Source of the DNA: Psammoneis japonica
Taxonomy: Eukaryota
Assembly: GCA_008632985.1 (NCBI GenBank)
Contig: QPGO01000008.1
Location: 166,979-230,978, forward strand
Direction of reading: 5' to 3'
Length of the DNA stretch: 64,000 nt
Part shown: positions 15,188-62,568 of the stretch, one piece after another
Layout of the letters: the number at the start of each line of letters is the position of its first letter
Position numbering within the stretch: position 1 is the stretch's first letter
Notes under the pieces: generated by a model
Database searches by the model: none
What the model saw: the letters and a program-made list of their open reading frames with translations, nothing else
Told to the model about the DNA's origin: nothing
Translations under genes and position numbers: made by a program

Positions 15188-15242
15188 AATCTGGTGCACC
15201 CCTGTCACAATCCACTCTGTCCTGGTCAGATGTCTGACAACA

Positions 15243-40170: not shown

Positions 40171-40648
40171 GTTATATAAGACGGTCGGGATGATGATTGG
40201 GTTCTCATGCAATGTACGAATCGACAATCAACAACAACCGAGCAACATCAACAACACTGCCTGTGCGAGATGCACTGTGGAAATGACAAAAATGAGGAAA
40301 AAAGGGCACGTTCCTCTTTTGCCTCGCTGTCCGTTGAATCGCTAAATGGAGAACACCTTTAACTATATACACAATGGTATATATTAGGGTGATTCATATT
40401 CGTTACGAAATTTTTTTAATGTAGAGCGTGCGCGCGTCACGTCAGTTCATGTCACACTGGTGCGCGCGCGCGACTAACGGTACAATGCAAAACAATAGGT
40501 CATGAGCAGGAAGATCGTCCGAGCTCCCACGACCTCCCACCGACAAAGAGCGACCGCACAAGAGATCGATCCAGAAAAAAAGACAAAGGCTAGAGCCACA
40601 TTCACGGTAAAGTAACTTTTACATCACATTATCGTCAGCTTGAACACA

Positions 40649-41911
40649 ATGGTAAGCAAATGTATGAGAGATGGAGGGTAATAATAGAGCCAATGTTTAG
40701 GGTGTCATGGCCATTTTCGAAAACTCCAATTTACTTTTTCATTCTTTAATTTACTTATTCAATTTTGACCATTTTCCTTATTCACAGAGACCAATTTTAT
40801 TAAAAGGCCATGAGCGGTCCATCACCGTGGTCAAGTTCAATTACGATGGCGACCTGCTCTTTACTGCCTCCAAGGACCACGTGCCTTCTGTCTGGAGAGC
40901 TGAAAATGGGGAACGATTGGGTACTTTTAACGGTCATAAAGGAACCATTTGGGATTTAGACTGCGATCGATTCACTACGAGGCTCCTGACGGCATCGGCG
41001 GATGCGTAAGTGATGTTTGTAATGCTGTCTAGTTACGCTTGGAGTTTCTCTTTTCATCGTAAGTTTTGTAAATCTAAGTTACGACACGCTCTTTTTCGTC
41101 CACGGACAACTACTTTAGGACTGCCAAACTGTGGGATTGTGAAACTGGAGAATGCATTCAAACATTGACCCATCGAGGACCAGTACGAGGGGTTGCTTGG
41201 GCGGAGGGTGCTGAAATGTTTGCCACCATTTCGGATCCATTTGTGGAACACAATGCTCAAATCTCGGTTTACGATGTGGGACAGGATTCACCGAGATTGG
41301 AAATTGATTTACCGAAGGACTCAAACAACAAGAAGGTCAACCCGACCAACATTGCATGGCTCAATATCAACGAGGCGCTCTTTGTGACGTTTGATAATGG
41401 ATCCATTCGCTTGTATGATCCAATCACTGGAGAAGAACTAGAAGAATTCTTTCCACACGAAAAGAAAATCAATCGCGTATCCTTCAACCGTGAAAAGACA
41501 TTGTTCATTACCAGTTCGGCGGACTTTACTGCCAAACTCTACGACGTGGTGGACCTGAAGCATCTCAAGACCTACAAGACGGACCGTCCCGTCAATGATG
41601 CCGTCATTTCCGAAACAAAGGATCATATCCTACTGGGCGGTGGTCAAGAAGCCATGTCGGTCACCACGACTTCGGGTAAGGTGGGAAAGTTCGAGACGAG
41701 GTTCTTCCACTTGGTGTACGAAGAAGAGTTTGGAACCGTCAAGGGACACTTTGGACCCATCAATGCTCTCGCGATAAACCCAAATGGGCTCAGCTTTGCG
41801 AGTGGCGCTGAAGACGGATACGTTCGCCTTCACTTCTTTGACAAGTCATATCTAGACATGAAAGACCCTGTCCCCGAGGAAGATGAAGAAGAGAATCCAG
41901 CAGCAGAGTAA
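40649..41911 (+). CDS. EIF3I: Translation initiation factor 3 subunit I (WD40); exons 40649-40651, 40788-41005, 41119-41911
   Basis: [76 protein letters not shown]. Confidence 0.95.
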
Positions 41912-41973
41912 AGTAAACGTTTACCAGTATGCATTAACAAGTTCTCTATAGTTGGTCCGGCATTAGATCAGCT

Positions 41974-42590
41974 TTATTTAACTGAGACTAGAGTGTTCCT
42001 CACAGACAGACTGATTCTGTTGATAATCGCTTCTCCGGCATCCAGATGAAATTCTATCCAGCTTGCTCTCCGTATTCCGTTCACATCCACAGTCTCAAAT
42101 GGTTCTGCTCCTTCGCCTGTCATCAGTGGCAACACGGGAGGGATCTCAACAGTTTCAGTCAGTTTGCGGAGCAGTCTAACTTGCCTGGCAGAGCCATGGC
42201 AGCCAATTGTTGCTTCCAATGCAACCTCTTGCGAATCAAGAGCGGCTTCGTTTAGGGTCTCATAGTCGCCCAGAATATTCTCTCGCCGATAGAAACCAGA
42301 TGCACCACGCGAAGGCGTTCCCACACTTGGGCCATCCACGACAATGCAATGATGGGAATCGTTGCATTCAACAGTTAGAACAACTGGATTCTCCACAATT
42401 TGGTGTTGTAAGGGCATCTACAGGCATCCCTCCAAGCTGTGCATAGTTTTCAATACCGCAACCCTGATAATCTTTATCTCGGCAATATGATAAGAGATAG
42501 TTGGGTTCAACATCAAAGACATGACAGTACGGAGGAAACTGAGTACGGTGTGGTCGACAGCATTGAGATCACAAGCAAGCATGAGAGAGC
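41974..42590 (-). pseudogene. Dead copy of the last exon (and part of the intron) of the M64-like gene at 61552-64000
   Basis: Collinear with 61552-62170. It lacks the 20 bp agcacagccgcgagtctgga (frameshift) and is separated from its upstream exon by the Gypsy insertion. Confidence 0.85.
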
Positions 42591-42607
42591 GCGAGCGAGA
42601 TGTCAGT

Positions 42608-45600
42608 TGTACGGTAGTTGCATACGCCGCCCTAGATAGGATCTACAGTTCATAATTGAACATGTCGATTCAGATCTATTCTCTACACAAGTTCCAGTAT
42701 ATCGATGAGCACTCTAAACATAAAGCTCACTTTTTTCGTCCATCGAATGACGTTACGCTAGATCAGTGCACAGAGAATTCACTTCACGCGTTTTTTCACG
42801 ATGACTTCCAACGATGCTGCGACACCCTCCTTCGAACTCACCGGACAATGGGAAACCCCGAAATGCTTCAAGGGGGGCACTGCGAAGTTTGAAGTTCGAG
42901 ATGTCCCCAACAACATCCACAGTGGAACACACGAGAAGAAAGTGACTTCTTTCAGTGGTGAGCATGGCAATGATGACCCCCGTTTCTTGTGTGATTTCTA
43001 AAGACAGGTGAAGGAGATCTTTGACCGCAAGCCCTTCGAAGCAGGCCCGTCCAAGTTTGGCATCTTCTCCACTTGCCTCATCGGTGCAGCAAAAACTGAT
43101 TGGGAGCAAGCGCAACAGGAATTTGAAGATCCAGTGCCAGAGACTGAGGACACGTTCCAAGCCATCCTTGAGACGTTCAAGACATGCGCCACTTCGAGAG
43201 CGACACGCCTCGATGTGACCAGATCGAACATCTGAGGACCATCAACAAACTGGTCTGGAGCAACTTGTGAGCAGTTCGTCTTGGCAATGGATGGCATGAC
43301 AACTGACCTCCGGCAGTTTCTGCTGGACGTCGACAATGACAGTGAAGCGCTGGACACTCAGCCCACCTTGTCAGACGACGATTGCGTCAACATGCTCATC
43401 AAGAGCGCACCACAACCTTGGCATGACAAACTCACAGCAAATGGCATGAACCCCCAAGACCTTGCCAAAAAGGACTTGAAAGAGCAATTCCAGTGCATGG
43501 AGAAAGTGGAGAAATGCAAGGAGAGATGTCACAAGTGCTCCAACGATGTCGTCACGGAAGCAACAACCAAGACTGAAAGAAGAACAATCGCAAAATGTCT
43601 TGCAAGGGAATGTCCGGGAAAAATCCCCCAAAAGCCCAAGCACTGCAACTTTTGCAAAAAATCTGGACACAACAACCAAGAGTGCTTCACCCGGGACATC
43701 CACATCACAAGAAAGTGTCCTTCAAACACGATGACCAAGACAAAAATGACCGCCACAATGGAGATCACAGCAATCATCACCGCAAGTGCCGCTGTCATGT
43801 CTCCAACAAGGAATCAGAGCAACCACGCTGCTTTTTGGGTGACGAATCCTTGGACTGCAATGACGGACGAGCAGCAATGATGGGCGAGCATGCAAGATCT
43901 GCCGCTCTGAAAAACAGAACAGAAAATGTGAATCTGGCAGCGAACAATCTGATGGCTGCCAGCTCAGCTGCTTGCAAGACAAAATGGATCATGCAAAAGC
44001 GGAGCACAGGAATGCCGCTCACATCCAATCAGGCTGATCGACACCAAAGTTGCAAAGAAAAAATGCAAGACAGCAGCACTGGCTGCAACAGCGCCGCCAG
44101 AGGATGATGCAGTCACTGGATCAAGTGCTCCATCATTGTCAGATTCTGGAAGCTCTGCACCCAGGAGATTTTGGCAAAAAGTCAAATCTGCCAGTTTCAA
44201 CACCAAAACTGGCAAGTTCACATGCCGACACAGAGTGGCATGTGACATTGCCTTGCCAGAGCCGTCAACATCCAAGACCTTTAGATGGTCTTTTTGTGTT
44301 GATGAAACCAAGGACAAGACTTGCAGCTTGATTCTTGGAAGCAACTGTCTCAAGGAACTTGAGATTTGCCTGTCACATTCATCCAAAACTGTTCAGCGGG
44401 GCAACTCATGGGCTCCAGTGCAAAGCCATGATGAAATCAAGCCTGGCTCAGAAGCTGAAGAAGCATTCTGGCAAATGCAATCAGACAAACATGACAAGAT
44501 GGTCAACGAGTGCTCTGCACTCAATGAGAAACAAAAGAAAAAAACACTCAAAGCATTGAAGAGCCATGAAATGCTCTTTGATGGCACATTGGGAACTTCA
44601 ACTACAAACCAGCCAACCTGCATGTCAAACTGGGCAAAGACGTGCCGTTTCACGCAAAACGAGCATTCAACACACCACAGATTCACAAGGACACCCTGCT
44701 CAAAGAAATCCAAAGATTGGCATCAATGGGAGTCCTCAAGCTAAATGACAGCAGCAGGCATGCATGCCCTGCTTTCATTGTGCCTGACAAAAATAAAACA
44801 GCCTGCTTTGTTTCTGATTTGAGAAAGTTGAACGTGAGATTAAGGCGCGAACCATGTCCGCCACCGACCATGCAAGAGTTGCCACAAAACCCACAAGGGT
44901 TTGAGCACACTGCTTCTTCAGACCCAAATGTGGGTCACTGCACCATTGGGCTCATGCCTCAAGCACAAGAGATGTGCGCTGTTGTTGCCCCGTGGGGGAA
45001 GTTCAGCTGTCAATGCCTGCCAATGGGAGCAGCGCTGGCATCAGATGTTTTTCAACTAAAAATGATGCAACTTGTGCAAGGACCAGAGGATTTTGTTCAC
45101 ACTTGCCACAACGACCTCCTTCCAATGGGCCAGCCTGCCTTTGATGAGCACCTTGAGCAACTCGGGGCAGTCTTGGGCTGGCTGCAACACATCGGGCTCA
45201 ATGTCAACGCCGCAAAATCAAAATTCTTTGCTGCTGAAATTGAACACCTTGGTTTCTGGCTCACTGGGGAAGGAACAGAACCTGTGGGTGAAAAAGCAAA
45301 AGCAACGGATGAGATGGAGTGACCAGAAACACAAAAACAACTCCGCCATTTCATCGGCATGGTCAATTTTTACCATGACATGTGGCAATCACGGTCACAC
45401 TTGCTTGCACCACTCTCAGAATTGACATCCAGCAAGAAAAAGAAAAAGCTGAATTGGCTCCCAATGCATGAGAGAGCCTTTCAAGCAGTGAAAGAGGCAC
45501 TGAGGCAAGACGTGATGCTCGTGCACACTTCTCCAAAAATTTTGCTGTCCACGTTGAGGCGAGTGATTTTCAACTCAGCGCCATCATGTCCCAAGAGGGC

Positions 45601-47809
45601 AAGCCAATTGCTTTTTACAGCAGATGGCTCAACAAAGCCCAAAGAAAATGTGCTGCTGCAGAAAGAAAACTTCTCTCTGTTGTGGAGTGCCTGCGAGAGT
45701 GCAGAAACATCTTGCCAGGCTACGAAATTGAAATTTTTACAGAACATGTCCATCTCACTTACAAAACGGCATCATCAGTGCGCGCGCATTGCTGGTGCCT
45801 GTTCACAGAAGAGCTCGGACCCACCTTGACGTTCATCAAGGGAGAGGAAAACATTGCAGCCGATGCACTGAGCCAGCTTGACAAAAAGATTCTGACTGAG
45901 ACAGCCGAAGGCCTTGATGGCAGCGCGCACCCACAACAATCAAATTCAAAGCAACTGGAGCAAATCACGTGATCCGAGCAGCTCTGTGTCCAAACCCGAG
46001 CTTGAGAGAAAAGAAAGCCAATTGAAAATAGCCAAAGCCCTTGCAGAAGAGGCTCTGCCACGATCCCAGCCAGCCCGCAAGCGCAGGCACCTGGAGAAAA
46101 GAGAGGAGACAGCTCCCACTCATGGCTCACCCACCAGCTGCAAGACAATCGTGAAATGCCAATGGAAAGATGCAAAAACATGTGAGAAGCTAGAAACAGA
46201 CAGAAACTGCATGGTTGGAAAGACAGGCAAAAACAATGCAGTCTTTTATGATGGCAATCAGATGCCCGTGCCACGACCACTCCAAAAACCAATCGTGGAT
46301 TGGCGCCATGTCAATCTCTGTCATCCTGGAACAGATCAAACAGAAGAAACAATGTGACAAAATTTTACATGGAAGAACTTCCGCAAAGACATTAGAGACC
46401 ATGTGACACATTGTGATGAGTGTCAATGGCTCAAAAAGCATGCCAAAAAATGTGGCCATCTTCCTGCCAAAGCAGCAGAACATCATCCGTGGCGCAAATT
46501 GTGTGTGGACCTCATCGGTCCCTACAATGTGCAGACCGCTGATGGCAAAATTCACGAGCTCAAAGCCCTTGCCATGGCAGATCCAGCCACATCATGGTTT
46601 GAGATCAAGGAAACACCCGATGCTGTGAGCAAGACAGCAGCGCCAACAGTCAACCAAGAATGGCTCTGTTGCTGCCCTCATCCTTGCAAGATCCCTTGTG
46701 ATCAGGGTGGTGAGTTCACTGGCCAAAAATTCCAAGATCTGTTAGAATCTCATGGAGTCAAAGGCAAGCCAGCTTCCAGCTGAAATCCACAGGCAAATGG
46801 CCTCATTGAGCGCACTCACCTCACTCCACACAACATGCTGTGCACATTTGACCTGCAACTGCAGACACTGAATCCAATTGATCCTTGGTCTGGCTGTTTG
46901 GCCAATGTGGCTGATGGCAAAATTCACGAGCTCAAAGCCCTTGCCATGGCAGATCCAGCCACATCGTGGTTTGAGATCAAGGAAACACCCGACGCTACAA
47001 GCAAAATGGCAGCACCAACAGTCAACCAAGAATGGTTCTGTCACTGCCCTCATCCTTGCAAGATCACTTGTGATCAGGGTGGTGAGTTCACTGGCCAAAA
47101 ATTCCAAGATCTGTTAGAATCTCATGGAGTCAAAGGCAAGCCAGCTTCCAGCTGAAATCCACAGGCAAATGGCCTCATTGAGCGCATTCACCTCACTCCA
47201 CACAACATGCTGTGCACATTTGACCTGCAACTGCAGACACTGAATCCAATTGATCCTTGGTCTGGCTGTTTGGCCAATGTGGCCTGTGAAATTAGAAGCA
47301 CCTGTGCCACACTGCACTCCAAGCCACCCCAGCAGAACTGGTTTTTGGACATGACATGATTTTTGACAGAAGATTTGGTGCCAATTGGGACCAGATCCTG
47401 TGGCAAAAGCAACATCTGATCAACCAAAATGACAAGCATGAAAACCTGAAACAAACCACCCATCAACATCAAGTGGGCGACCATGTTCCATGCAAATGAC
47501 ATGCCCGACGCAAGCATGATGTCATTGAAGTCTGTTCCAATGGCACAGTGCAGATCCAAACCAGTCAAAGGATCAAAGAGAGAGTCAATGTTTGTCTCTC
47601 ACACCTTTGCAAACACCATCCTTGACCTTGCCAAACCCTTGGGGAAGCGAGTGCAGTGCACCGCCCTGGGATCCACAGCTCACAATTGAACATGTCTTCT
47701 GACGTTGCTCATCTGATGATGTGGACGATGACTCAGATCCATTCTTGACACAAGTTCCGGAAGATCAACAAGTGCTCTAAACACAAAGCTCGCTTTTTTT
47801 GTCCATTCA
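42608..47809 (+). mobile_element. Degenerate full-length Ty3/Gypsy LTR retrotransposon inserted in an intron of the dead M64-like copy
   Basis: Gag knuckle CNFCKKSGHNNQEC; protease DSGSS; RT (PWGKFSCQCLPMG, HTCHNDLL); RNase H (KPIAFYSR, ENIAADALS); integrase (LCHPG, CVDLIGP, DQGGEF, PQANGLIER). Polypurine tract ggggaagcgag at 47641. Related LTRs at about 42608-42746 and 47652-47809; candidate TSD tcagt (42603-42607, 47807-47811). Confidence 0.9.
46538..47281 (+). repeat. 372-bp tandem duplication inside the Gypsy integrase
   Basis: ADGKIHELKALAMADPATSWFEIKE...GVKGKPASS occurs twice, starting at 46538 and 46910. Confidence 0.95.
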
Positions 47810-48175
47810 GTGAAATCGCCACAGCTTCCAACCTTTGGTGCAGCTCACTTGCAGGCCCTGTCAGAACTTTGCATGTGCAGCATGTGAATCTTTTGTTGAC
47901 AGCTCCAGCTGTGATTTGCCAGGGTGTGCACAAATGATTGTTCAATGACAAATCCCTCATCAATCCGACAACCAACCATGCATCTGGCTTGGTTGCATCC
48001 TGGCGGGGTGGCTTCAATCAAGTCAGCCCACTTTGAGCACCACGGGTGCTTGTCACAGTTGGGATGGTTTGAAGTCCGACCACCATGACAAGTGACCCAG
48101 CTCATGAACTGCAACCAAAGCACTGTCAGGATGGAGGGCAGTGGAAGCAACGTTGTCTTGGGCACAACCGGTGCC
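47810..48175 (-). pseudogene. Hypermutated fragment of the M64-like catalytic exon (continuation of the dead copy)
   Basis: Aligns to 62176-62568. A deletion removes most of the LFALADEYF segment after HELGH, and TpA/CpG sites are converted. Confidence 0.9.
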
Positions 48176-48440
48176 AAAAAAAAAGAAAAAAGGAAAAGAA
48201 GGGATTGGCCTTGAAACCACAAGCCGGCACCCTCAGGAAGATTGATGGACAGATCACGCAGATCCCGAGCAGGGAAACATGCTGTGTGAAAAGGGCAGTC
48301 ACATGAGTTGGCACAGCAAACATCTGCACAAAGAGCAGCATCAGAAAAACACACAACCAAGACCAGATTGCATGCACACAGAAACAGAAAAGGGCAAAAA
48401 AAGGAAAACACACCACATGAGGCATGTCAAATGAAACATT

Positions 48441-49150
48441 TTAGAATTTTGAAATTTTCAAAATTCTTGCAGAGGTGGGGCATGGCCACTGAGCAGTCAA
48501 GAGCTCTGAGCTGGTGGTCTGCTGACAAAGCAGAGTTTCCAAGGCATGCCATGAAGGCAGTCGAACATCAGTGCAGCAGTGCTGAATGGCTTCCGTGCTA
48601 AAGTTCATTTGGCGGAGCATCTGGCAGGCCCCAACACGAAAGGAATGGGAAGACCATCTGTTGACAGCCTTCTTGTCCTTGACCAGATCAAGTTTGTGCA
48701 CCTTGGCGGCCACTTCATGGACATCTTTCTCAATCACCTTGGAGGTGACGAGCTCAATCTCCTTGCCTGCAGGTTTGCACAAGGACAGAGGAGTTGGTGA
48801 TCTTGTGACCAAGTCAGTTGCAGCCAAACACTGAAAATCTGATTGAAGTGGCAAACAGCAGTCACTTGCATTGAGGGATCACCTTGACATGCTTGGTTGG
48901 TCTTTCAGCTGCATTTGGAACAGATGATTCTTGTCCAAGGGTGACAACAGCTGGGCTGTTCCTCATTGGTTCAAATGCAATGGAAACAGGAGACCTGTTC
49001 TCTTTCACTGCATGCAGTGCCAAAGGCAGTCCCACACAATTGACAACAATGTCATGCACATTTGGTTTTTTTTTGGTGTGATGCATCAACACCCTCATGC
49101 CATTCTTGTCCAGAATCAATTGCCGTTTGCACAGGCAACACACCATTTTC
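48441..49150 (-). pseudogene. Tyrosine recombinase relic (DIRS/Ngaro- or Crypton-like element; extent unknown)
   Basis: WSSHSFRVGAC (HSxRxG), followed after a frameshift by CSTAFMACLGN, resembling WxSxAFxxYLR with the catalytic Tyr codon read as TGC. Confidence 0.7.
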
Positions 49151-52100
49151 ATTTGACAACAACACCAATGACGAATTGCACCTCAAAAAAAATTTGATGG
49201 CATGTTCACAACAGCCACAAGTGAATGCATCCAGTTGTCATCATCTTTGCAAACAATGCTGTTCACATTCCAGCAATTGCAAACACAAGCAGCATCAACA
49301 CAGTGTTTGGACAGAGGCAGCACTGAACTCGCAATGTGGGTGAGTGCATTGCCTGCTGCATCGCAACTTTTTTTGGAAGAGAAGCACAACCCAAACAGAA
49401 ACAAATGCAATGGCAAAAGTGGTGGGTTCTCCATTCCCGCCAATGCGTGCAATGGTTGAAAGGCAGTGCCGTCTGGCAGCAATGGCAAGGAAGAGTTTCT
49501 TGCAAATGCAAACTCCGTTGTCCCATGACAGAAAGAAACCAACAGCAAAAACAAGGTCACTTGAAAGAAAGGATCATTGAAATCCTTGTGATGATGGCTT
49601 CCTCCACAAAAGTTGGTGGATCTCCCCATCCAATCACGGTTGTCATGATCTCCAAAGCCAAACTCAAATGGATGATCAAGAGTTGTTTCTCCTGACTGCA
49701 CAAGATTGCATGCCAAGTCAATTTCTTCCAAAGAGCAATTCTGACAAAATGTGCTCAATGCGTTTGCATGCAAAAAAGCGCGAGTGCCGCTGACCAAGCT
49801 GAGTTTGGAGACAACTGCTTGCCTCATGTCAGAACCATTCTCAGAGATGAGTCCCTCTTTGATCATCCCATTGAGTGAAATGGGTGCCAAACAATGACAT
49901 CCATGGAACAGCGCAAAGTCGTGATCTTGTGCAAAAGAAGAGTTGGCGAGCAATGTTGGCAAAATTGCACCCATGCTTCACCTTGCAAAGGAGCACCAGT
50001 TTCTCCTCTCCGGAGAACACAATCTTGGTTGACGGCATCACGGGAATGCAAGCAATCCTGTGAAGACAGCTGGCTCGATTCTTTGCTGCTTTGTGATGGA
50101 GAATCCTCTGTTCATTGCTGGAACTGTCTGAATCAAACTTGACCACAAAGTGTGTTTCTAGAATGTGTGCATGCCTTGCTCCGCAGACCTGCACCTCCTT
50201 GACGATGATCTCACCTTCCTCTTCTGCAAACTTGCGCTTTTGTCATTTCTCTGAAAATGGCAAGCACGACAATGACAAGAGCGAGACATTGATTTCTTCT
50301 AAATGACAAAGCATTGAGCACTTGCCAGCAAGCCTCTTTCCTGCATGATCCCCAGCTGCTCCAACTTGTGCCGATGGCCACAGGTCACATGTCATGTGTT
50401 GGTTTGTGCACTCACGGACAGACTCTGGAACAACAACAGATGGGTTCCAGCCCCAGGTGGGACTCCGTGTGACATTGGGCCCGCAGAATTCTGCGTGCGA
50501 GCTCCACAGTAAATTGGCACTGCAATGAAAACACAAATGATCGCCAACAGAAAAAGAGGCAATTTTACGAATGCATCTCCTCCTTGGTGCTTGGAGCACA
50601 TCATTGAGAGTTTGCCCGGACATGTTTTGCAGACATTGAAGAACACACCCAGCATGTTTTTGTTCTCACAAATGTTGAAAATAGAAAGCCTTTGGCTTCG
50701 CAAAACAGGGAGCATGTGAAACAATTTCGTAGAATGCAAAATGCAGAAATGTGAGTGCGTGACATGCGACGTGATCCAAAAAACCATTGATGTCACAGTG
50801 CAGCAGTGCAAGGTCCCACCCAGAGCTGGAGCACGTCAACACCACAGTCTTCAAGAAGAGGAAGCAGATTACAAAGTTCAGAAAAGAGAATCTCTGTGGC
50901 GTCATCTTCCGTGTCTCACGCCTGCCACATCCGGTCAAGAACAAAGCAGCGATGGCAGTGCAGACTGGCTCTTCAAAGAGAAGACATCGGCAGTGGCGCC
51001 AAACAAAATGCAATGCTGACAGAAGACACTGCCAATTCGCAGCTGCATCGGCGCCATTGCATTGACTGTTCACGGTGAAGCCACGGTGCTTTTCCCATCC
51101 AACAACTTTGTGCTTGGAACACAACAGGTGCGCGTGCTTCAAAATGAAAAGTGCAGCCACCTGAAGAGGATGAAGCTCTTTTCCATGCTCTGCCTCCAAT
51201 GCATCAAGCTTGCTCACGTCCATGGCGCATTCACCCATGCCGGGGTTCTTCCGATCTTTTGGTGGGACCGCTTCTTGTCCATCTGGCAGTTTCTTTCTGC
51301 AGAACTTGTGAATCGAATGCTTCACCAGTTTTCATTGTGACACAGACGTTGGCTGTTTGCTGTTGATGATGAGGGTGAGTGCCGTGTTGATGACAAGCTG
51401 CTGTTGAATGTTTTTGAGATGAGCGAGAATGCACGCATGCATTTGTTGTGCATGGAAAACATGCCACATTCTACTTTGGGTGCGCCATTTTTTTTCATGC
51501 AGAACATGCACCAACAAACACTGCAAAAAAGGAATCCAAAGGCAACGGAGTGTCCCTGTCGTCCCAATGCAACACCACTCTCCATCGCGAGTCTGTGTGT
51601 CAACCATTCTTTGCACATGCGCTCGCACGCACCCGAAGGTCTCCTCGTGGACTCTCAGAGAATTCAGACAGATGGTGGCAAAAAATGTGCTCCGGTGCTC
51701 TCACAGATTTGGCTCAAAATGGGCTCTTCACAACTCGTCATGTGTGTTTCAAACCACCACATGAGATTTTTACACAAAACACACCAGAAAAAGCACCGTT
51801 CCCACGACAATCGATGTCATTGGCACATTGACAGCCATGCCTTCTACCGCTTGCCCATCATTGCAAGATGCATTCATGAAGCTCATCATGGCATTGGAGT
51901 GGCGACAATCGGTGACTGTTTCGTTGCTTTCTGCCCAGTGCTTGGTGTGTGCGAGAGTGTGTGTTTTTCGGTCGTCATGCTGGCATGGTGTCTCCTTTCA
52001 TTCTCTTCTTCCACTCATTTCAATTCGTGCATTTGTGTGTTGAAAGATGTGAATCTTAAGGTGCGCTGAAACCAGTGTCGGTTTTCATGTCAATGTGTGA

Positions 52101-54123
52101 GTGTCGTTCTGCTCAAACCAGGATTTGTTGTGTCTTTGATTTCTTCATGATTTGATGGCTCACTGATGGTGCTCTTTCTCTTTGTGGTGAATGTTTTAGA
52201 CTGTCAATGTGTGTTGAAGACATTGTTGAGCTGCAGCATTGACAGTCGAGATTTGTCATTGACTGAGCTGCTGCATTCGTAGTGACACGCATGAGTCCCG
52301 TCTTTTTGCTGCATTTCATGACGATTGCCTTGATTTCTCGTGATTTGGGATGGACAACGCCTCTCCATTGAATCCAATTCTGTCATTGAGCGTCACAGGT
52401 GAGACTGTGCAAGAACAGAGATGACATTTGCATCTGATTGACTCACCATCTGCCATTTTTCTCAAAGCAGGTTGCTCTGGGGCGTGAAACAGATTGATGA
52501 GACGGAGATTTGTGACACGTTCTAATGGATTGGAGGACACAGGAGACAAGAAATGCCACAGAGATGAATGGCAACTTCTGTCACACTGAATGCCTCAGCA
52601 GAAACTTGCAACAAATTTCTGTCAATGCGAGGCAATCTGTCAGTGACAAAAGACTGAAGAATGTTTGCAGCTTGTGAGTTGCATTCTATGAAATCTGTTG
52701 TTCACAAGACAACATGGGTCATAAAAGATCTTGTGCAAAGACTCGAACATGGGAGCCAATGTCCCTCCTGAGGGTTTCTGGGTCATTGTCGGCAGTTGCC
52801 GTCAAAGCTGCTGCGGTGCCCAAAGTGGTGCTGTCATTTCCCGTCTCCTGATTGAGATCACAGTGATGTTTTTGCACACAATGTCAGTGTCGTCATGTGA
52901 TGACAAACAATGCGTCGAAAAATCGGCATTGAACACACTGATTTCTGCAAGCATCATCATCCAACACAGCGGCACTCGCCATTTTCTTTTGTCGCGGTGA
53001 AGTGCGGAAGACTCCATTCCAAAACAAAGTTGACACATGTTGTGTCCAATTGTGAGTTAGCCGGGGCAGGGCTGGTTGGTCGCACACGTTTGGGTTCGAT
53101 GTGATGCACAACTGGCCACACCCTGCAGGAAAAGCTGTTGGTGGCAGGCGAGCAGAAGCAACAAAGCAAACAAAAAACATGGCATGGGTCAAAACGTTGC
53201 AAAATGACGCGACAACAAACAGTGAGAAGAAACCCAACTTAACCCATGAGTGCAGTGCACAAATGTTGTCCAACCACTTCAGTGGCATCTTGCATTCCCA
53301 GCTTGTAGATCAGTGAACACCGCTCACGTTTGCTCGCCATGGTGTTGCTTCATGTTGGTCATTGTCATGTTGTTTGTGTGCGAAGAACACCGGATCTATT
53401 TGTCCGATGGTGGCTCTGTTTTGGTCATGGTGGATGTTTTGCTGTTTTCAATCTGAAGACATTTTGAGAAGCGCTTTGTGACAACCCTGTTTGGACCGTC
53501 AAATAGAATTTTTTTTTGCAGATTCCAGAGTTCTTTCGGGGTGTTCTGCAAGACTTTTGAGTTGGGGCACATGTGTCACAAAGTCCACAGAAAACTTGAT
53601 GATGTGTTCAAGCTCAAGAGATGAACACAAATTTATCTTCCATGTGGACCACGCAGATTGTGTGCCGGCGGAAAATCCACCGCATGTCAACTCACACAGT
53701 GGCAATCCTGCGCATGTTCCACTTGCACCTCACACACGCACACACACCTGCACAGTCCAACAACCGCGCACACGTGCGCGAGATGACTGTGCCTGGTGCA
53801 AAGTTAATTTTTCTACAGTGCGCTGCTGTGTCGCACGCCGGCCATCCGCAAGAGCACCGGAACACATCGCCTGCATGCGACCCTGGTGCATCGTCTGTCT
53901 GAATTCTCTGAGAGTCTGTGAAGCACAGGCTCAGAGCAAACCTGGGCAGGACACTCAATTCACAACACACACAAACATTGAGAACATTTTACATTTACAA
54001 AATGGGAGACATTTCATGGACACAGCTTCCGGGTTTCCACATTTTGTGTGCCGGGTTCCTTTCGATGTTTTTGATGTTTTATCACGGTGAAAGTGCGACG
54101 ACCATGATGGTCGATTTTCACAT

Positions 54124-54225
54124 CAATGCAAGTGGGGCCAAAGTGCGCCGACCATTTGAACCTCATCATGTCGATGATGTGTGGCACAGGCATGGTGTCA
54201 GTGCACTTTGGCCCCACTTGCATTG
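54124..54225. repeat. ~100-bp inverted repeat with 29-bp arms, possibly a MITE
   Basis: caatgcaagtggggccaaagtgcgccgac ... gtcagtgcactttggccccacttgcattg. The two mismatches are at CpG positions; no TSD was found. Confidence 0.75.
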
Positions 54226-54744
54226 CAATGAAAAAACCAACGGCATGCTGTCATGGCTGTTTTTTTTTTCAGCGGCCGCACCCAGAAAAAAGCTCTGGCC
54301 GTGCAGAATTCTGCGGTGATTTTGTGCTGAGCTCTCAGCCAACTTCTGTCAAAGACACAATTTCACTCGCGTTGCATGGCACTCTGTCAATCTGTCAAAA
54401 GCAAAGATCATGACAAGGAAACAGCAAAATCCCAAGAAATCAGAGGCTTGCAAGGCCACAATGAGGCTCATGCCAACAATGCCTGCTTCCCTCACCCACA
54501 CTTGGCTCACTGCTTCGGAGCATTGCAATCTTCTCACTCAAGGCGGCATCAACAACAGAGTCACCTGTGAGGACATGAGCTCCATCATGAGGTCACACAA
54601 CAATGGAGCATTTGAAAGTCGACAGTTTGGAAGCCATCACGACAAGCATTGTTGTTCCCACTCTGCACAAGATGACCCAACAATGCCAGAGACTCGGGGT
54701 GCCATTGATCTTCACCTCGACTCTGATGCATTCTCGGGAGATGA

Positions 54745-57167
54745 ATGCGTGGAGGATCTCAATGCTGTCAGTGCTCTTTGTGTGAGTCGATTCCTGAGTC
54801 AGATGACCAAGAGAATTCAGGAAATGGCAATGTTGTTGCTCCCACTGTCACTCCGTTGCCCAGAAATTCAAAAACATCTGCGGCTGGCTTGTGCAGAGGA
54901 TGGAGTGGTCCCAATTGCAAGAGACTCGTGTCCATGTCTCTGAAAGAGGCTCAAGACGAAGTTCCTTGGCTTCTTGGTGAAGGAAAGTGCAATCAACCTT
55001 TTCCACTTTCCAAGAGGTTCAACAAGCGCAAAGACTGTGAAAAGTTTGTTGTGGACAACAGTGCTGCACCGGCTGAATGGACGATTCGAGCCACTTCATG
55101 CACTGGCTCATCTCATCTCCACGGTGGCCTCTGCGATGCATGCAAGAGTTCATCCTCATCACTGACTCACACAAATTCCTTTTGCAAGGAAGATGCAAAG
55201 GTTCATGGAAAGATGCACATGACTGAGGAACGCATCCATCTGCTTAGACCAGCAAAAACAGCGGAGGCAGTTAAGTCAATCTGTCACGAAAAGAACAATG
55301 CCATGCACAATCTCAGCAGAAAAACAGCTAGACTGAAGGCGAAACTTTTTGAAGTCGAGTCTGACTTGCACACAGTTGAACATGATGATGACAAACAAGC
55401 ACTACGAGATGTGCTAAAAGAGGTGCCACCGGCTGCAAAGAAAGCACACTGTGAAGATTCCCTGCAATTTCATGTTCTAAAGGAGTCTCATCGCAAACTG
55501 CTTGGTGTGCGCACAAAGAGTGATGGCACATTGTCAAATGGGAATCAACATCATCCAGAGGCAATGACACCCGCAATGTCTCTCATTCGAGACGCAAACG
55601 AAAATGTGCACAAGTCGCTGCAGAATGTTCTGCACTTGCCGTCAACCAAGGAAGCAAAGAGAAAACTAAAGGAGCTGGTTGGAGACACCAGCAAAGATGG
55701 ATCGTGTGAGGAAATGATTGATCTGATGTCAGGAATGCATCAACAATGGGCTGTGGAAAATCCCACCATCAGCCAAGGTTGGAACCAGGTGACGTTTAAC
55801 TGCAATTCAATGTCCGTCAGTCCTGGCACCATGCTTTGCACTCGAAAGGATGGCATGTGCCAAACAGATGGCGTCATCATGCCAGAATCTGTGGATGTCA
55901 CCAAGAATCTTTTTGATCAGTTTGCATTCAAGGTTTCTGAGGAGCGGGGAGTTGGTCCATCAGAACAAGGCAAAATGCAATTGGTGTCGTCTCTTCTAGA
56001 GCGCGAAACAGAACACACGGCAATGTGTGTGGTTTCTCAAACCCACGTTGTGACATGTGTTTCATTGGGGCTGCCTTCAATGGAACTGCGCCAACAAAGT
56101 CAACCATTGGTTGTCAGCCAGATGACTTGCAGAGGAAGCTGGCGACACGAAATGTGTTTGGATGAGTTGAAGCAGCCGACTGTGCAGGTGCAAACGTTGG
56201 ATTCACCAAACTGACCTGCACCACACCAGCAAGCAGTTTCATTCCAGCTGATGTCCTTGAAAAGCATGGTTTAGATGGGTCGTGGCTTGTTGCTGGTAAA
56301 TTGTTTGCTGATGGTGAACCCAAGTTCTGCTTCCACGATGCGCCGCATGGTTTGAAACGCGTGAATTGTGCAATGAGAAACCAATCCCTGTCATGGCATC
56401 CCGACGGCACATGCCCAATGTCAATGAATGCCCTTCGGGAAGTGCACCAATCCATCATGGGGAGCACAGACGAAATGGCCTTGATGCACTCCATGAAATT
56501 GAGAGCCTCCGATTTCGATTCCAGAATGGATGCTTCTCAAAAGCAGAAGGTTCAACCAGCAGCCCGCACTTTGAGCAACACCATGTGCCGGGCGACAGAC
56601 AAAGTGTGTGCTGACGCGATGATCGACTTTCCGTCAATCCCATTTGAACAGAGGAAATTCCAGCTTTCCAAGCTGAGAGAGCTTTGCTCTAATTGCAGTC
56701 GTTGGTTTGACACCTGGAACTCTAGAGATCCATCCAAGCCAAGTCATTGGAAAGTGCTGGTGACTCGAAGAAACGCAGTGGAAATTTTGGACGAATTGCT
56801 TGGCATTCTAAAATTCTTCCAAGATTGGAAAGAGTCCCTGACACTCCCGGATGGCACTTTTGTGCAGGACAACTTTATCCCGATGGAAACTTGTGAGACC
56901 ATGAAGCAAGACTGCCATGGTGCTGCTTCCCACACATGCGATCAAGCTGTCAACAAAGGCCGAGAGGTGTGTCTTTACCGTTGCAACCAGGACAAGTGTG
57001 AGAACCACTTTTCCCATTGCCGCGTTGCCTGCGGGAACGCTCGAAATCCCAAGGGGGCTCATGCAAAGACTTGCGCCAACTTGTCGGGTCTGAAGAGGGC
57101 CATCCGGGCCAGCAAAAATGGGAACATCACATTGTTTGAAGCAGCAAAGAAAAGGAAAGGAAACTGA
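54745..57167 (+). pseudogene. P-element/THAP9-like transposase relic, frameshifted near 56.0-56.3 kb
   Basis: NVHKSLQNVLHLPS; FHDAPHGLKRV (DxxH); KQKVQPAARTLS; RWFDTWNSR; NQDKCENHFSHCR. These are P-superfamily blocks in the expected order. Confidence 0.8.
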
Positions 57168-57628
57168 ACAGCCAATTTGGTCACTGCGTCTTTGCACTTT
57201 CGTGCGCAACAAGTGCTCCAGTTCTAGTTGGCAATTTGTCGGTTCCTGTGCATGGCCGAGACTGCCGTTCAAGACGAAGCAAGTCAGACGATTTCATTTT
57301 TCCACACAGCTCCAGTGTCATTCCAAAGCAAGCTTGCCAAAGGAGCAAATGTGACTCCACATTGAAGCTCAGCGGGATGCACTTGACAAACAATTCCCTC
57401 AATGGCAGACTCTTTTTGGCAGTGGACAGCACATCTTCTAGAATTCTTCCACGCCGATGCAACACCTGTGCAGCAGCAAAGTTCACCAGGTGGAGCCCCT
57501 CAAGCAAGCTGACAAAATTGTGCCAAATTCTGCCCCGGACGGGTCATGCACCCATGTGCCTTTTTGTTCTCACGAAAGTCAATCTCTTCAGTTGGCATGC
57601 CGGATTTCTGAGCATCATCTGCGGTGAG

Positions 57629-58764
57629 TCAGTTGTGCTGGACAAATTCAACAAGCAACTCCTTGTTCAATCTGCGCATTTTGCTGCAAGATGTGACCTT
57701 GAGGAGAAGCCACCCTGCAACACTGCATGATTTTCCTTCATGTCCACTCAGTCGTTCCTGGAGAACAGCAGTGTCAACATCTGAGCCCAAGTCTGGTGTC
57801 GCATCGTGCATTGCCGTCTTTGACCATTCGGCACACATGTCACAATGAAGTTGGGCAAAGAAGCATCTGAGGTGCGCTGCTTGGTTGTCTGACTCAGAGT
57901 TGAAAAATGAGACAATTTTCTGAAGGAAGCGTTCCCGCAAGACGACGTGGATTTCATGCCATTGATTGTTGGCACGCCTGTCAATTGTTTGAGGCATCGC
58001 CCCCGTCAGAGTGTGGCAAACTGCATTTTCAAAGCTTGGTGTCTCCTGAGCAGCAAGCAACTTGAGCTCTTCTCTGCTTGCAAAGTCTGTGATTTCCGAA
58101 TGATCAACGTTTGTTTTGGACACTTCCTCCTGAGCATTCTTTGCCGCCCGCCCCCCACTGCAGATGGCATGTCATGTTCATCTAGGTGCAAGACCTGACG
58201 AATCTCATCAACATCATCAACCTTGAATGTTGGTAGAGGGACAACACCCCGTGCTTTTTTAAATGCAAGCCATCTTTGTGACTGGTGCCGACGGTTGGAA
58301 AGGACATTGAGCCGTGTGAGCAACTCATCAAAGGAGGTGTCGCGTCCTTTCCGTGGCAGCGGCTTCTTTGTGTTCCACCTTGTGGTGCTGAATCCATGGT
58401 CATAGACGCGCTTTTGGAAGAATTCATCTGGCTCTCTGCGAATCGTTGCGCAGTTGAGAGTCAAAGCACTGCCATCATCCTGATCCATTGCGTTGATTCC
58501 TGGCGGCGGCGGCGGCAGTTGTTGCTGTTGCTCACACATTTCTTCATGCTCTGCGCCCAAGTTTTCCATCTCGTCCCTGGAGAAACCATTCTCATTTTGC
58601 ACGTCATCAACAGAGAGGACTTCTTCGTCACACAGGGCACCAGCCTCATCAAAATGGTGCTCAGTGGGGTCACTCATCGTCAACTGCACACACGCACTTG
58701 CAACAGCGAAGCGATGTGGTGTTGGCTGCAGAAAATCTGCTTTTCGAAAAGTCGCAATTTCCAT
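57629..58764 (-). pseudogene. Convergent accessory ORF relic of unknown function inside the 7.8-kb element
   Basis: Two overlapping protein-like frames (acidic N-terminus, then KLLAAQETPSFENAV...) joined by a frameshift near 58.1 kb. Confidence 0.45.
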
Positions 58765-59434
58765 TGTCGCAGAGGCTGCGAGCTGATTGGCATGTCTCTT
58801 TATGTCAAGGGTGGTCGGTTGCCACTTTTTTTAGCTCGAATTCGGCCGAACACTTCGTGTTTTGCATGATTTTTCCTGAATTTCACCGTGCTTCACCGTG
58901 GTGAAAACAACAAGCCATAAGTCTGTGACGGAGGTAGTCCGTCTACCAACTCTCATTTATTTTATGTTTGTTATGTATCAAAGATTGTACATACATGAAA
59001 AGTTGGTAGACGGCAAACTACGTTTTTGAGAAATGTCGATGATTGTCATCATCGTCGTGCTTCGATCGCGGTGTTGATGGTTCTCGTTTTCGTGCGCGAT
59101 CGGGTGTGACTATGAATAATTCTTGTATTCAAAAATAAACACTAAAAAAACCTTATTCAAATGCAACGGTAATTTTAGGATAAACGCGGGGATGACCCCC
59201 CTTAATTATCGAGTGTTAATAATAAAGATTAAGGTAGCCGCTCATATCCGTCAAATGTCTCCCGGCCAGACAGAATGTGTCCCGCCTAGAGACCCCCGAG
59301 TGTGCGAAGCGCGCGGTACGGTCGACGCATGGACTCACGATGGAGAGTGACGCAACACGGCGAGAAGAGAGAACTATGCCTCCTCGCTCCTCGCTCCTCG
59401 CCTCTCGCCTCTCGCCTCCTTGACTTCGTGAAGA

Positions 59435-60160: not shown

Positions 60161-62568
60161 AAAGACAAAGGCTAGCCACATCCACGGTAAAGTAACTTTT
60201 GCATCACATTCTTGTCAGCTTGAAACACAATGGTAAGCAAATGTATGAGAGATGGAGGGTAATAGAGCCAATGTTTAGGGTGTCATGGACATTTTCGAAA
60301 ACTCCAATTTACTTTTTCATTCTTTAATTTACTTATTCAATTTTGACCATTTTCCTTCTTCACAGAGACCAATTTTATTTTTAAAAGGCCATGAGCGGTC
60401 CATCACCGTGGTCAAGTTCAATTACGATGGCGACCTGCTCTTTACTGCCTCCAAGGACCATGTGCCTTCTGTCTGGAGAGCTGAAAATGGGGAACGATTG
60501 GGTACTTTTAACGGTCATAAGGGAACCATTTGGGATTTAGACTGCGATCGATTCACTACGAGGCTCCTGACGGCATCGGCGGATGCGTAAGTGATGTTTG
60601 TAATGCTGTCTAGTTACGCTTGGAGTTTCTCTTTTCATCGTAAGTTTTGTAAATCTAACTTACGACACGCTCTTTTTCGTCCACGGACAACTACTTTAGG
60701 ACTGCCAAACTGTGGGATTGTGAAACTGGAGAATGCATTCAAACATTGACCCATCGAGGACCAGTACGAGGGGTTGCTTGGGCGGAGGGTACTGAAATGT
60801 TTGCCACCATTTCGGATCCATTTGTGGAACACAATGCTCAAATCTCGGTTTACGATGTGGGACAGGATTCACCGAGATTGGAAATTGATTTACCGAAGGA
60901 CTCAAACAACAAGGAGGTCAACCCGACCAACATTGCATGGCTCAATATCAACGAAGCGCTCTTTGTGACGTTTGATAATGGATCCATTCGCTTGTATGAT
61001 CCAATCACTGGAGAAGAACTAGAAGAATTCTTTCCACACGAAAAGAAAATCAATCGCGTATCCTTCAACCGTGAAAAGACATTGTTCATTACCAGTTCGG
61101 CGGACTTTACTGCCAAACTCTACGACGTGGTGGACCTGAAGCATCTCAAGACCTACAAGACGGACCGTCCCGTCAATGATGCCGTCATTTCCGAAACAAA
61201 GGATCATATCCTGCTGGGCGGTGGTCAAGAAGCCATGTCGGTCACCACGACTTCGGGTAAGGTGGGAAAGTTCGAGACGAGGTTCTTCCACTTGGTGTAC
61301 GAAGAAGAGTTTGGAACCGCCAAGGGACACTTTGGACCCAAAATGCTCTCGCGATAAACCCTAACGGACTCAGCTTTGCGAGTGGCGCTGAAGACGGATA
61401 CGTTCGCCTTCACTTCTTTGACAAGTCATATCTAGACATGAAAGACCCTGTCCCCGAGGAAGATGAAGAAGAGAATCCAGCAGCAGAGTAAAGTAAACTT
61501 TTATGCATTAACAAGTTCTTTATAGCTAGTCCGGTATTAGATCAGCTTTATTTAACTGATGCTAGTGTTCCTCACAGACAGACTGATTCTGTTGATAATC
61601 GCTTCTCCAGCATCCAGATGAAATTCTATCCAACTTACTCTCCGTATCCCGGTCAAGTCCACTGTCTCAAATGGTTCTGCTCCTTCGCCTGGCAACATTG
61701 GCAACATGGGAGGGATCTCAACAGTTTCAGTCAATTTGCGGAGTAGTGTGACTTGCCTGGCAGAGCCATGGTATCCAATTGTTACTTCCAATACAACGTC
61801 TTGCGAATCAAGAGCGGCTTCATTTAGGGTCTCATAGTCGCCCAGAATGTTCTCTCGCCGATAGAAACCAGATACACCACGTGAAGGCGTTCCCACACTT
61901 GGGCCATCTACGACAATGCAATGATAGGAATCGTTGCATTCAATAGTTAGAATAACTGGATTCTCCACAAAGCACAGCCGCGAGTCTGGATTTGGTGTTG
62001 TAAGAGCATCTACAGGCGTCCCTCCAAACTGTGCGTAGTTTTCAATACCGTAACCCTGATAATCTTTATCTCGGCAATATGATAAGAGATAGTTGGGTTC
62101 AATATCAAAGACATCACAGTACGGAGGAAACTGAGTTTGGTCGACAGCATTGAAATCATAAGCGTGAGAGATGTAGTGAAATCGCCACAGCTTTTAAAAA
62201 CACGTTTGGTACAATTCACTTACAGTCCCCGTCAGAACTTTGTATGTACAGCATGTGAATCTTTCGTTGACAGCTCCAACTGGATTTGCCAGGGTGTGCA
62301 TAAACGATCGTTCACTAATAAATCCCTCATCCATCCGACAACCAACCATGCATCCGGCTTGGTTGTATCCTGGTGGGGTAGCTTCAATCAAGTCAGCCCA
62401 CTTTGAGCACGGGTACTTGTCACAGTTGGGATGATTTGAAGTCCGACCACCATGGAAGTACTCGTCTGCAAGAGCAAATAACGAGTGACCCAGCTCATGA
62501 ACTGCAACCAAAGCGCCGTCGGGATGAAGGGTAGTGGAAGCAACATTATCTCGGGCATATCCGGCGCC
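60161..62568. repeat. Direct segmental duplication; the partner is 40578-42590 plus 47810-48175
   Basis: Continuous alignment from aaagacaaaggctag through eIF3i into the M64-like gene. The partner copy is split by the Gypsy element. Confidence 0.92.
60230..61491 (+). pseudogene. EIF3I: Near-identical duplicate of eIF3i with a -1 frameshift in the last WD repeat
   Basis: Same exons and introns as 40649-41911. cccatcaatg becomes cccaaaatg at about 61341, giving a stop at 61355-61357. It also has an extra Phe codon (RPILFLKGH), and upstream identity ends at about 60161. Confidence 0.75.

Follow-up and report, generated by a model that had tools for sequence, protein, structure and literature searches.

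Transposon-confined hypermutation of TpA to TpG and CpA in a 64-kb region of the Psammoneis japonica genome

The 64,000-nucleotide stretch of Psammoneis japonica DNA considered here (GenBank assembly GCA_008632985.1, contig QPGO01000008.1, positions 166,979 to 230,978 of the forward strand; hereafter "the window", numbered from its first nucleotide) contains long blocks of transposon-derived DNA from which the dinucleotide TpA is nearly absent and in which TpG and CpA are in excess. This pattern is very probably the footprint of a mutation process that is limited to these domains, acts in place after the arrival of the transposons to change TpA to TpG or CpA, has approached saturation in all resident classes of element and leaks into the flanking DNA. 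TpA-directed hypermutation is a recently described kind of mutation (Mettrop et al., bioRxiv 10.64898/2026.01.13.699255), which is here found in another lineage, distant from the first, where it has transposons as its target. The starting point was a first-pass annotation, made by a model from the letters of the window, in which one mutated fragment was singled out and a genome defence resembling the reverse of repeat-induced point mutation (RIP) was proposed.

The depleted DNA was delimited by a 1-kb profile and density segmentation of the window, which identified five blocks (1-1451, 1752-7763, 14117-24393, 31901-33301 and 42871-58784; Table 1) with a total length of 35,055 bp, in keeping with the roughly 36 kb of skewed transposable-element (TE) blocks reported in the first-pass annotation. 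These blocks contain 129 TpA, corresponding to an observed/expected ratio (O/E) of 0.03-0.08, compared with 1,200 TpA in the remaining 28,945 bp (O/E 0.605). The O/E of TG and CA is 1.6-2.0 in the blocks and approximately 1.19 elsewhere; G+C content is similar (0.47-0.49 in the blocks and 0.476 elsewhere), and AA/TT, with an O/E of 1.1-1.3 in the blocks, is not depleted. Nearly all of the 1-kb windows within the blocks show a TpA O/E of at most 0.17 and a mean TG/CA O/E of 1.58-2.05, and those spanning a border are intermediate. The TpA-bearing gap at 1452-1751 was considered as a break in the first block and rejected as a threshold effect. The observation of the first-pass annotation is confirmed and proved much stronger than its 366-bp example conveys.

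A Pfam scan of the block frames (117 open frames, minimum length 105 aa; E up to 0.01) gave matches for seven frames, comprising four from a Ty3/gypsy-type relic, two of them integrase, one from a Plavaka-type transposase and two that are weak and transposase-like. Judged by this content, the blocks consist of relics from several transposon classes, and the depletion affects the relics of both Plavaka and Mutator-like (MULE-like) DNA transposons. The presumed long terminal repeats of the gypsy relic (42619-42750 and 47652-47813) aligned poorly and gave a weak count of 6 of 10 TpA changed to CA/TG. A search for close relatives of the gypsy RNase H yielded 14 pattern matches in viral_contigs and 222 in metagenome_contigs, none of which was confirmed in either set.

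The change can be followed base by base in a fragment of a Peptidase_M64-like host gene that is enclosed in the last block and has an unmutated counterpart within the normal DNA of the window. The first-pass annotation had aligned this fragment to gene sequence at 62176-62568, and the alignment was recovered at 62175-62568 with 81.7% identity over 398 columns (E 1.5e-112). The 363 aligned bases contain 38 mismatches, namely 12 A>G, 10 T>C, 8 C>T, 3 G>A and 5 others. All 14 TpA of the gene copy are lost in the fragment, the total given previously, with an outcome divided evenly between CpA (7) and TpG (7) instead of the reported 8 TpG and 6 CpA. Similarly, the earlier figure of about 11 CpG changed to TpG/CpA holds, while the number of aligned CpG is 17 and not 15 (5 are kept and 1 has become CpC). 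Changes outside TpA and CpG events account for 12 of the 38, and 8 of these are A>G/T>C outside TpA; thus, TpA accounts for 14 of 22 A>G/T>C changes, and CpG for all 11 of the C>T/G>A changes. The remaining 14 dinucleotide types, CpG excluded, were changed at 48/327 sites, which differs strongly from the loss of TpA (14/14; Fisher p = 1.2e-11). A hand count of A>G by 5′ base over both strands of this pair gave 14/14 for TpA, 4/48 for ApA, 2/62 for CpA and 2/43 for GpA; because of these values, the rates are not equal across NpA contexts, and the uniformity that the first-pass annotation had named as incompatible with its proposal was not seen.

The gene itself is represented by a 178-aa open frame at 62.2-62.7 kb that covers part of the Peptidase_M64 domain, and its relatives show 47-55% identity, the two named ones coming from one diatom and one Tetraselmis transcriptome. 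A diverged second Peptidase_M64-like stretch is present in normal-TpA DNA at approximately 26.3 kb (26326-26447, matching 62457-62578).

The polarity of the change was examined over 114 codons, with the fragment read in the frame of the gene and with five outgroup proteins (47-55% identity). The encoded amino acid differs at 22 of these codons, at which the five outgroups agree with the gene in 38 cases and with the fragment in 4. Tyrosine codons 58, 122 and 163, at which the relatives carry Tyr, read TAY (Y, pyrimidine) in the gene and TGY in its mutated copy. An independent test gave a comparable result in the 709-aa relic frame at 3-2129, where the 11 columns that have Tyr in at least two relatives are occupied in the relic by Cys (6), His (3), Phe (1) and Tyr (1), and 44-80% of other residues are kept. 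At the Tyr positions of the relative P0116, the relic has Cys or His in 11 of 21 cases, compared with 0 of 12 in P0117, and the Tyr content of the relic is 0.4%, compared with 2.8-3.2% in two relatives. Cys is precisely the residue encoded after a change of TAY to TGY, and His that after a change to CAY. These comparisons indicate that TA is ancestral and TG/CA derived, which upholds the direction proposed in the first-pass annotation (38 matches versus 4, and conserved Tyr changed to Cys/His in 9 of 11 columns); an ancestral TpG/CpA state, which would have been visible in the outgroups, was looked for, and the opposite was found in both relics. The relative P0115, which contains 0.9% Tyr, was considered as a second case and rejected, its Tyr being replaced by Phe (9), His (4) and Trp (3) and never by Cys.

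The gene fragment is part of a segmental duplication, the two copies of which (A and B; Table 1) lie approximately 19.6 kb apart. Copy A is interrupted by a gypsy relic of approximately 5.2 kb and resumes beyond it as the fragment at 47809-48175; having been split by this later insertion, it offers a natural before-and-after control for the hypermutation. In the far zone of copy A (40579-41899), 1 of 51 TpA is changed and the divergence from copy B is 1.37% (1,315 aligned bases), whereas in the near zone (41900-42576), 15 of 41 TpA have become TG/CA and the divergence is 6.9% (664 bases). All TpA are kept in copy B. Elsewhere, the blocks have borders that are sharp on a 100-bp scale; even a short island of 1.4 kb (31901-33301) is affected, with dense TpA returning within approximately 100 bp on either side. 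The 374-bp tandem copies in the integrase part of the gypsy relic differ from each other at TG-versus-CA doublets, as well as at a single TGTG-versus-TACA site, and these differences fit an independent decay of shared TpA (or CpG) after the tandem duplication. The change was made in place and is bound to the region, not to sequence homology. It is not a RIP-like response to duplication, because copy B is untouched and the far zone of copy A shows a single change in 51 TpA. The region-targeted mutator postulated in the first-pass annotation is therefore supported, as the partner copy at 62 kb is unchanged and so is the duplicate beyond approximately 0.7 kb from the block.

Twenty-three metagenome loci encoding relatives of the transposase at 3-2129 provide an external comparison. 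None of the 23 is depleted, their TpA O/E ranging from 0.34 to 0.82 with a lowest 1-kb value of 0.32, and hence this transposase family is not intrinsically TpA-poor. Several of these loci have a CpG O/E of 0.16-0.5. Four of them (L014, L018, L021 and L023) combine a CpG O/E of 0.16-0.36 with a normal TpA O/E of 0.75-0.78 and are probably methylated transposons of other protists that do not possess the TpA process. Since such CpG-poor relatives keep their TpA, decay through cytosine methylation alone does not lead to TpA loss.

The TG/CA counts in the three large blocks (738/701, 1164/1147 and 1567/1771) are strand-symmetric, as expected from the earlier claim that the process acts on both strands. 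Along the gene fragment, TG and CA outcomes alternate without runs, and processive action on a single strand was rejected on this ground. The sites that have survived reveal a clear sequence preference: relative to the count in normal DNA, TpA survivors number 2/339 where both strands read T-A-Y (ATAC, ATAT and GTAC), 59/642 at mixed sites and 68/219 where both strands read T-A-R (R, purine), with a chi-square p of 6e-22 against normal DNA and of 2e-17 against the flanks of block CA+TG. At the trinucleotide level, the blocks hold 3% of the normal amount of ATA/TAT, 5% of GTA/TAC, 12% of CTA/TAG and 19% of TAA/TTA; the largest gain is that of GCA/TGC (1.83-fold), and the loss of TAC (24.9 per kb) is matched by the gain of TGC (29.4 per kb). 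Among 30 polarised events, the hits per strand are 16/64 for TAC, 8/49 for TAT, 4/35 for TAG and 2/64 for TAA, and at mixed sites, which have the pyrimidine on one strand, the outcome follows the pyrimidine strand 12 to 3 (p = 0.035). Surviving TpA are concentrated in A-tracts, with A at positions +1, +2 and +3 in 45%, 57% and 44% of cases, compared with 21%, 27% and 27% in normal DNA. The change of TA to TG/CA removes TAA and TAG and cannot create a new in-frame stop, and long open frames are found in the blocks because these two stops have been erased; the window contains 76 open frames of at least 150 aa.

Loss of TpA and decay of CpG are co-located, and the former is faster. All 65 TpA-depleted 500-bp bins have a CpG O/E below 0.8, whereas normal bins average 0.93. 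Among the depleted bins, 30 lie below 0.25 and 17 others at 0.5-0.8, and the interval 42760-43760 retains a single TpA with a CpG O/E of still 0.68. The first-pass annotation had placed its mutator in methylated, silenced DNA, which fits the reduction of CpG in every depleted bin, although methylation as such is not proven by it. Because TpA is saturated while the divergence of the far zone is 1.37%, we infer an acceleration of TpA loss by a few hundred-fold or more. Were the surviving sites in balance with back-mutation, the CA+TG/TA ratio at R-T-A-Y (1864/2) would imply a lower bound of approximately 900-fold, and that at Y-T-A-R (1760/68) a bound of approximately 26-fold.

The sequence of the mutated DNA is reproduced by unitigs of sequencing run X1 (word depth approximately 60-65), without any difference over 47254-48120 and with one over 48092-50460. 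A polishing artefact is excluded by these unitigs, and exact words at this depth argue against miscalls in noisy reads; they are not an independent confirmation. Accordingly, the concern raised in the first-pass annotation that raw reads might keep TpA is answered to the extent that the unitigs carry the TG/CA sequence, the run being not independent of the assembly. Variant unitigs did not show ongoing activity, consisting mostly of CpG/TpG differences and of TG-versus-CA doublets of paralogous copies. Within the last block, a segment of approximately 0.6 kb (50184-50851) reaches a word depth of 57,000-75,000 in run X1, compared with approximately 60-65 in its single-copy flanks; this segment belongs to a repeat of the order of a thousand copies, across which many short unitigs join variously, and Tandem Repeats Finder detected no tandem structure there within the window.

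A hypermutation of precisely this type has been measured in the chlorarachniophyte Bigelowiella natans, and the statement in the first-pass annotation that no standard pathway was known does not survive this report. In mutation-accumulation lines of B. natans, two integrated viral regions mutate at approximately 6e-7 per site per generation, compared with 3.5e-10 elsewhere; of the 231 mutations in these regions, which occur in some lines only, 230 are A>G/T>C, and every one of these falls on TpA. The B. natans genome contains 124 TpA-depleted clusters (cut-offs in 1-kb windows: TpA at most 0.43, CpA+TpG at least 1.52), TE-type Pfam domains are enriched in its TpA-poor coding sequences, and an ADAT2-like adenine deaminase is proposed as the agent (Mettrop et al., bioRxiv 10.64898/2026.01.13.699255). 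Nearly all 1-kb windows inside the present blocks lie beyond both cut-offs. The two cases share the change of TpA to TpG/CpA on both strands, its confinement to regions, at far above the background rate, and the clusters in which TpA is scarce and CpA+TpG abundant. They differ in lineage, the present host being a diatom-like stramenopile and B. natans a rhizarian; in target, transposon blocks and a trapped host gene as opposed to giant-virus and virophage inserts; and in the degree of depletion, an O/E of 0.03-0.08 as opposed to a Rho of 0.45 in the region derived from a nucleocytoplasmic large DNA virus (NCLDV). New mutations were observed directly in B. natans, at a measured rate about 1000-fold above background, whereas the present case offers a footprint from which the fold-rate is deduced. 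The flank gradient, the T-A-Y preference and the co-located CpG decay are described here and are not in the parts of the preprint that were compared, the main text of which makes no mention of diatoms. In the literature searched, which did not extend to most subscription journals, the signature was found in this preprint alone, and none was found for diatoms.

The following course of events is very probable. Once transposons had entered the genome, a process limited to their domains rewrote TpA to TpG or CpA in place, striking the retroelement, the DNA transposons and the trapped host gene fragment alike and leaking approximately 0.7-0.9 kb into the adjoining DNA. Either strand of a TA can serve as the target, the strand chosen being the one whose A has a 3′ pyrimidine; R-T-A-Y has become almost extinct and T-A-A-A survives, Tyr codons turn into Cys or His, and the relic frames stay open. 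As the agent, we tentatively propose an enzyme of the TadA/ADAT2 kind that would convert adenine in DNA to hypoxanthine by deamination at 5′-T-A-Y and be recruited to silenced, cytosine-methylated chromatin. With the same reserve, and judged jointly with adenine deamination, the process may be identical to that measured in B. natans. The explanation as a whole, including this agent, is rated just short of evenly balanced.

In favour of adenine deamination, the requirement for a 5′ T at the target is absolute and a 3′ pyrimidine is preferred. TadA-derived enzymes favour U-A-C-G(A), a motif resembling the tRNA loop that is their substrate (PMC8052359), and in the window TAC is the top early target (16/64), with TAT close to it (8/49). 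Three features suggest targeting to silenced methylated chromatin: the blocks are made up of transposons, CpG decay is always present and the gradient has the scale of nucleosomes; in the diatom P. tricornutum, 5-methylcytosine (5mC) is described as restricted to TEs, together with heterochromatin marks (PMC12344493, likewise in part).

Several points weigh against this interpretation. The polarised data at the nucleotide level come from one pair, comprising 363 bp and a 2-kb flank, and the reads come from three public runs of one sample and study, which are probably the assembly's own source and whose library type is not recorded. The ranking of TAC and TAT differs between counts, since TAC is higher in the early-phase count and the TAT classes are at least as depleted in the survivor count, and any +2 G preference of the TadA type is masked by CpG decay in the same DNA. 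As A>G on one strand is T>C on the other, thymine chemistry fits equally well. Pfam analysis of the frames revealed no candidate deaminase gene within the 64-kb window; ADAT2 is, to our knowledge, present in all eukaryotes, so that its presence would not discriminate. Methylation and heterochromatin are deduced from CpG decay alone. A mutation-accumulation study of the model diatom Phaeodactylum gives the usual GC-to-AT bias, with no TpA effect reported in the part of that study considered (PMC6604790), and the 23 related loci show no TpA loss; together they imply a lineage-limited process, which makes a claim of shared ancestry with that of B. natans weaker.

The main rival to adenine deamination is modification of thymine, and the two are inseparable from sequence alone. 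A TET/JBP-type enzyme would hydroxylate the T of R-T-A in silenced transposons, and the resulting 5-hydroxymethyluracil (5hmU) or 5-formyluracil (5fU) would occasionally pair with G to yield T>C, read as A>G on the other strand. 5-Formyluracil mispairs with G. The duplex data would be identical under this explanation, with the preference reading R-T-A. In dinoflagellates, members of the same SAR (stramenopiles, alveolates and rhizarians) supergroup, transposons are silenced by TET/JBP-made 5hmU, which in Crypthecodinium cohnii replaces T preferentially in TA and TC (PMC11572971). Dinoflagellate 5hmU thus resembles the present case as a non-cytosine mark on the transposons of a SAR protist, in a TA/TC context in one species; however, it is a mark and not a reported mutator, and no erasure of TpA is described in the sections of that work compared here (PMC11572971). 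In addition, a base-resolution map of Breviolum minutum presents 5hmU without sequence preference (PMC11071213, in the part considered), and the blocks show no depletion of TC/GA (GGA/TCC 0.89, GAA/TTC 0.88), so that a preference for TA and TC is not reproduced. We consider thymine modification unlikely, though it is the strongest of the alternatives to a deaminase. An improbable further source of the changes would be a by-product of a heterochromatin mark or of repair, through error-prone processing of an adenine methyl group at TpA or through Pol-eta-like patch synthesis. The co-location with CpG decay in 65 of 65 depleted bins and the low rate of A>G outside TpA (8 of the fragment's 22 A>G/T>C changes) would be in line with such an origin. 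The motif of Pol eta is WA (W, A or T), which predicts a loss of AA as well, but AA/TT is undepleted (O/E 1.1-1.3) and ApA changed at 4/48 compared with 14/14 for TpA; the Pol-eta-like WA>WG synthesis listed among the candidates of the first-pass annotation is contradicted by these values. The known eukaryotic motif of N6-methyladenine (6mA) is ApT rather than TpA, and the CpG-decayed relatives of the transposase show no loss of TpA.

Editing of RNA or cDNA intermediates is a far less probable origin. ADAR favours a 5′ U, and ADAR and APOBEC edit one strand of RNA or cDNA before integration. A-to-I editing of transposon transcripts that were then reverse-transcribed would share with the present case a deaminase hypermutation of mobile elements, as known for retroelement intermediates (e.g., PMC4866542, in part), and one of the relics is indeed a retroelement; the likeness of A>G with a 5′ U preference to ADAR editing is also noted in the discussion of the B. 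natans preprint. Against this origin, the changes are strand-symmetric, the relics of DNA transposons are equally depleted, host DNA was hit in place, as seen in the gene fragment and, in a distance-dependent manner, in the flank, and the tandem copies diverged in place. The last alternative, which is very unlikely, is that no mutation process took place and that the pattern reflects an assembly or base-calling artefact at modified bases, an intrinsic poverty in TpA or selection against it. The origin of the data from one sample, of unrecorded library type, would leave room for an artefact, but unitigs at approximately 64x exact-word depth reproduce the sequence, and the fragment also differs from the gene copy by indels and by other substitutions. 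A TpA-poor origin disagrees with the outgroups, in which TA is ancestral, and with the normal TpA of the transposase relatives, and selection against TpA cannot operate on relics with broken frames. GC-biased conversion, together with selection against TpA, was rejected as a cause, CpG being lost in the same DNA and the relics being broken.

Among established genome-defence systems, RIP invites comparison. RIP is a C>T change at CpA that creates TpA and is triggered by duplicated sequence. Shared with RIP is the character of a mutational defence, by which transposons acquire transitions in a single dinucleotide context and adjoining DNA is affected as well; however, RIP in fungi changes CpA to TpA and creates stops, whereas here TpA is destroyed and stops are removed, and RIP requires duplication and mutates both copies, whereas here copy B and the far zone of copy A (1/51) are unchanged. 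The term "reverse-RIP" used in the first-pass annotation is therefore apt for the direction of the change and not for its trigger, as there is no sign of dependence on duplication. Decay through deamination of 5mC likewise leads to TG/CA and is apparent in the blocks (CpG O/E 0.04-0.7), but it cannot remove TpA and is slower here, half of the CpG being retained where TpA is gone. In contrast to the ADAR/APOBEC systems, the process acts on both strands, on DNA transposons and on host DNA in place.

Table 1. Positions in the window of the depleted blocks, their relics and the duplicated host sequences (coordinates from the first nucleotide of the window; E, expectation value).
Feature	Position	Strand	Basis and remarks
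Block 1	1..7763 (1-1451 + 1752-7763)		25 TpA in 7,463 bp, O/E 0.04-0.07; CpG O/E 0.14-0.40
Relic frame of 709 aa, in block 1	3..2129	-	Three relatives, E 2e-106 to 7e-62, 34-38% identity
Block 2	14117..24393		23 TpA in 10,277 bp, O/E 0.032; CpG O/E 0.15
Plavaka-type DNA transposase relic, in block 2	15952..16686	+	PF18759, E 5.5e-12
Small island of 1.4 kb, internally repeated, between normal genes	31901..33301		7 TpA, O/E 0.079
Segmental duplication, copy A	40579..42576		94.7% identity to 60161-62163 over 2,022 columns
Gradient zone, partly mutated (host DNA and left end of gypsy insertion)	41900..42759		TpA changes, divergence
Block 4 (gypsy relic, gene fragment, further unclassified relics)	42760..58784		42871-58784: 74 TpA in 15,914 bp, O/E 0.07; CpG O/E 0.50
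Ty3/gypsy-type relic	44582..47152	+	Reverse transcriptase 44582-45319, PF00078, E 8.9e-6; RNase H 45472-45969, PF17917, E 7.9e-19; integrase 46358-47152, PF00665 + PF17921
Tandem duplication of 374 bp in integrase part of gypsy relic	46538-46911 / 46910-47283		96% identity
Hypermutated fragment of Peptidase_M64-like host gene, inside block, right of gypsy relic	47809..48175	-	Alignment to 62175-62568
Segmental duplication, copy B, continuous with the gene	60161..62163		Alignment to copy A
Unmutated counterpart of the fragment, part of Peptidase_M64-like gene (open frame 62194-62730)	62175..62568	-	PF09471, E 2.8e-11

The rest of the window contains ordinary genes, including those for Pex19, AdoMet decarboxylase, O-fucosyltransferase-like proteins, an HA-domain protein and the Peptidase_M64 protein. 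The named relatives of the Pex19 frame are all diatoms (Seminavis, Cylindrotheca, Fistulifera, Pseudo-nitzschia, Mayamaea and Skeletonema), with 30-45% identity, and no near-identical protein was found on record; for AdoMet decarboxylase, the nearest Atlas cluster consists mostly of Bacillariophyta. By homology, the host is probably a diatom or close stramenopile and not Bigelowiella. Two neighbouring O-fucosyltransferase-like paralogs (27791-29026 and 30167-31711, both on the minus strand), with 66-71% DNA identity, lie in normal-TpA DNA. An open frame of 1,409 aa (8353-12582, plus strand) contains ten tandem units of 306 bp (102 aa) that are 86-92% identical; its Pfam matches are weak and scattered, probably reflecting the repeats, and the surrounding region at 9-12 kb has a G+C content of 0.555-0.558, the maximum of the window.

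It is possible, though on balance doubtful, that the process represents a chromatin-guided, DNA base-editing defence that exists in at least two distant SAR lineages as an A:T counterpart of RIP and 5mC decay, with a T-A-Y adenine deaminase as its most likely agent. Such a defence would act on every transposon class, removing Tyr codons and signals that contain TA but keeping frames open, and, by reaching several nucleosomes into adjacent genes, it could hasten decay or diversification among the host genes next to transposons. Beyond the parts of the B. natans preprint compared here, the window adds that R-T-A-Y is hit and T-A-A-A spared, with the 3′ pyrimidine setting the strand; that host DNA is reached over approximately 0.7 kb; that TpA loss is constantly linked to, and faster than, CpG decay; and that the process is absent from relatives of the same transposon. 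For annotation, such blocks call for caution, as they yield long false open frames and Tyr-poor "proteins" that are likely to be called as genes. A natural T-A-Y adenine editor capable of acting on double-stranded DNA, if it exists, would be of interest to base-editing research. If the interpretation is correct, the process is not peculiar to one chlorarachniophyte and its viral inserts, but would be directed at transposons in a second, ecologically dominant algal group, and it points to a little-known route for disabling invading DNA.

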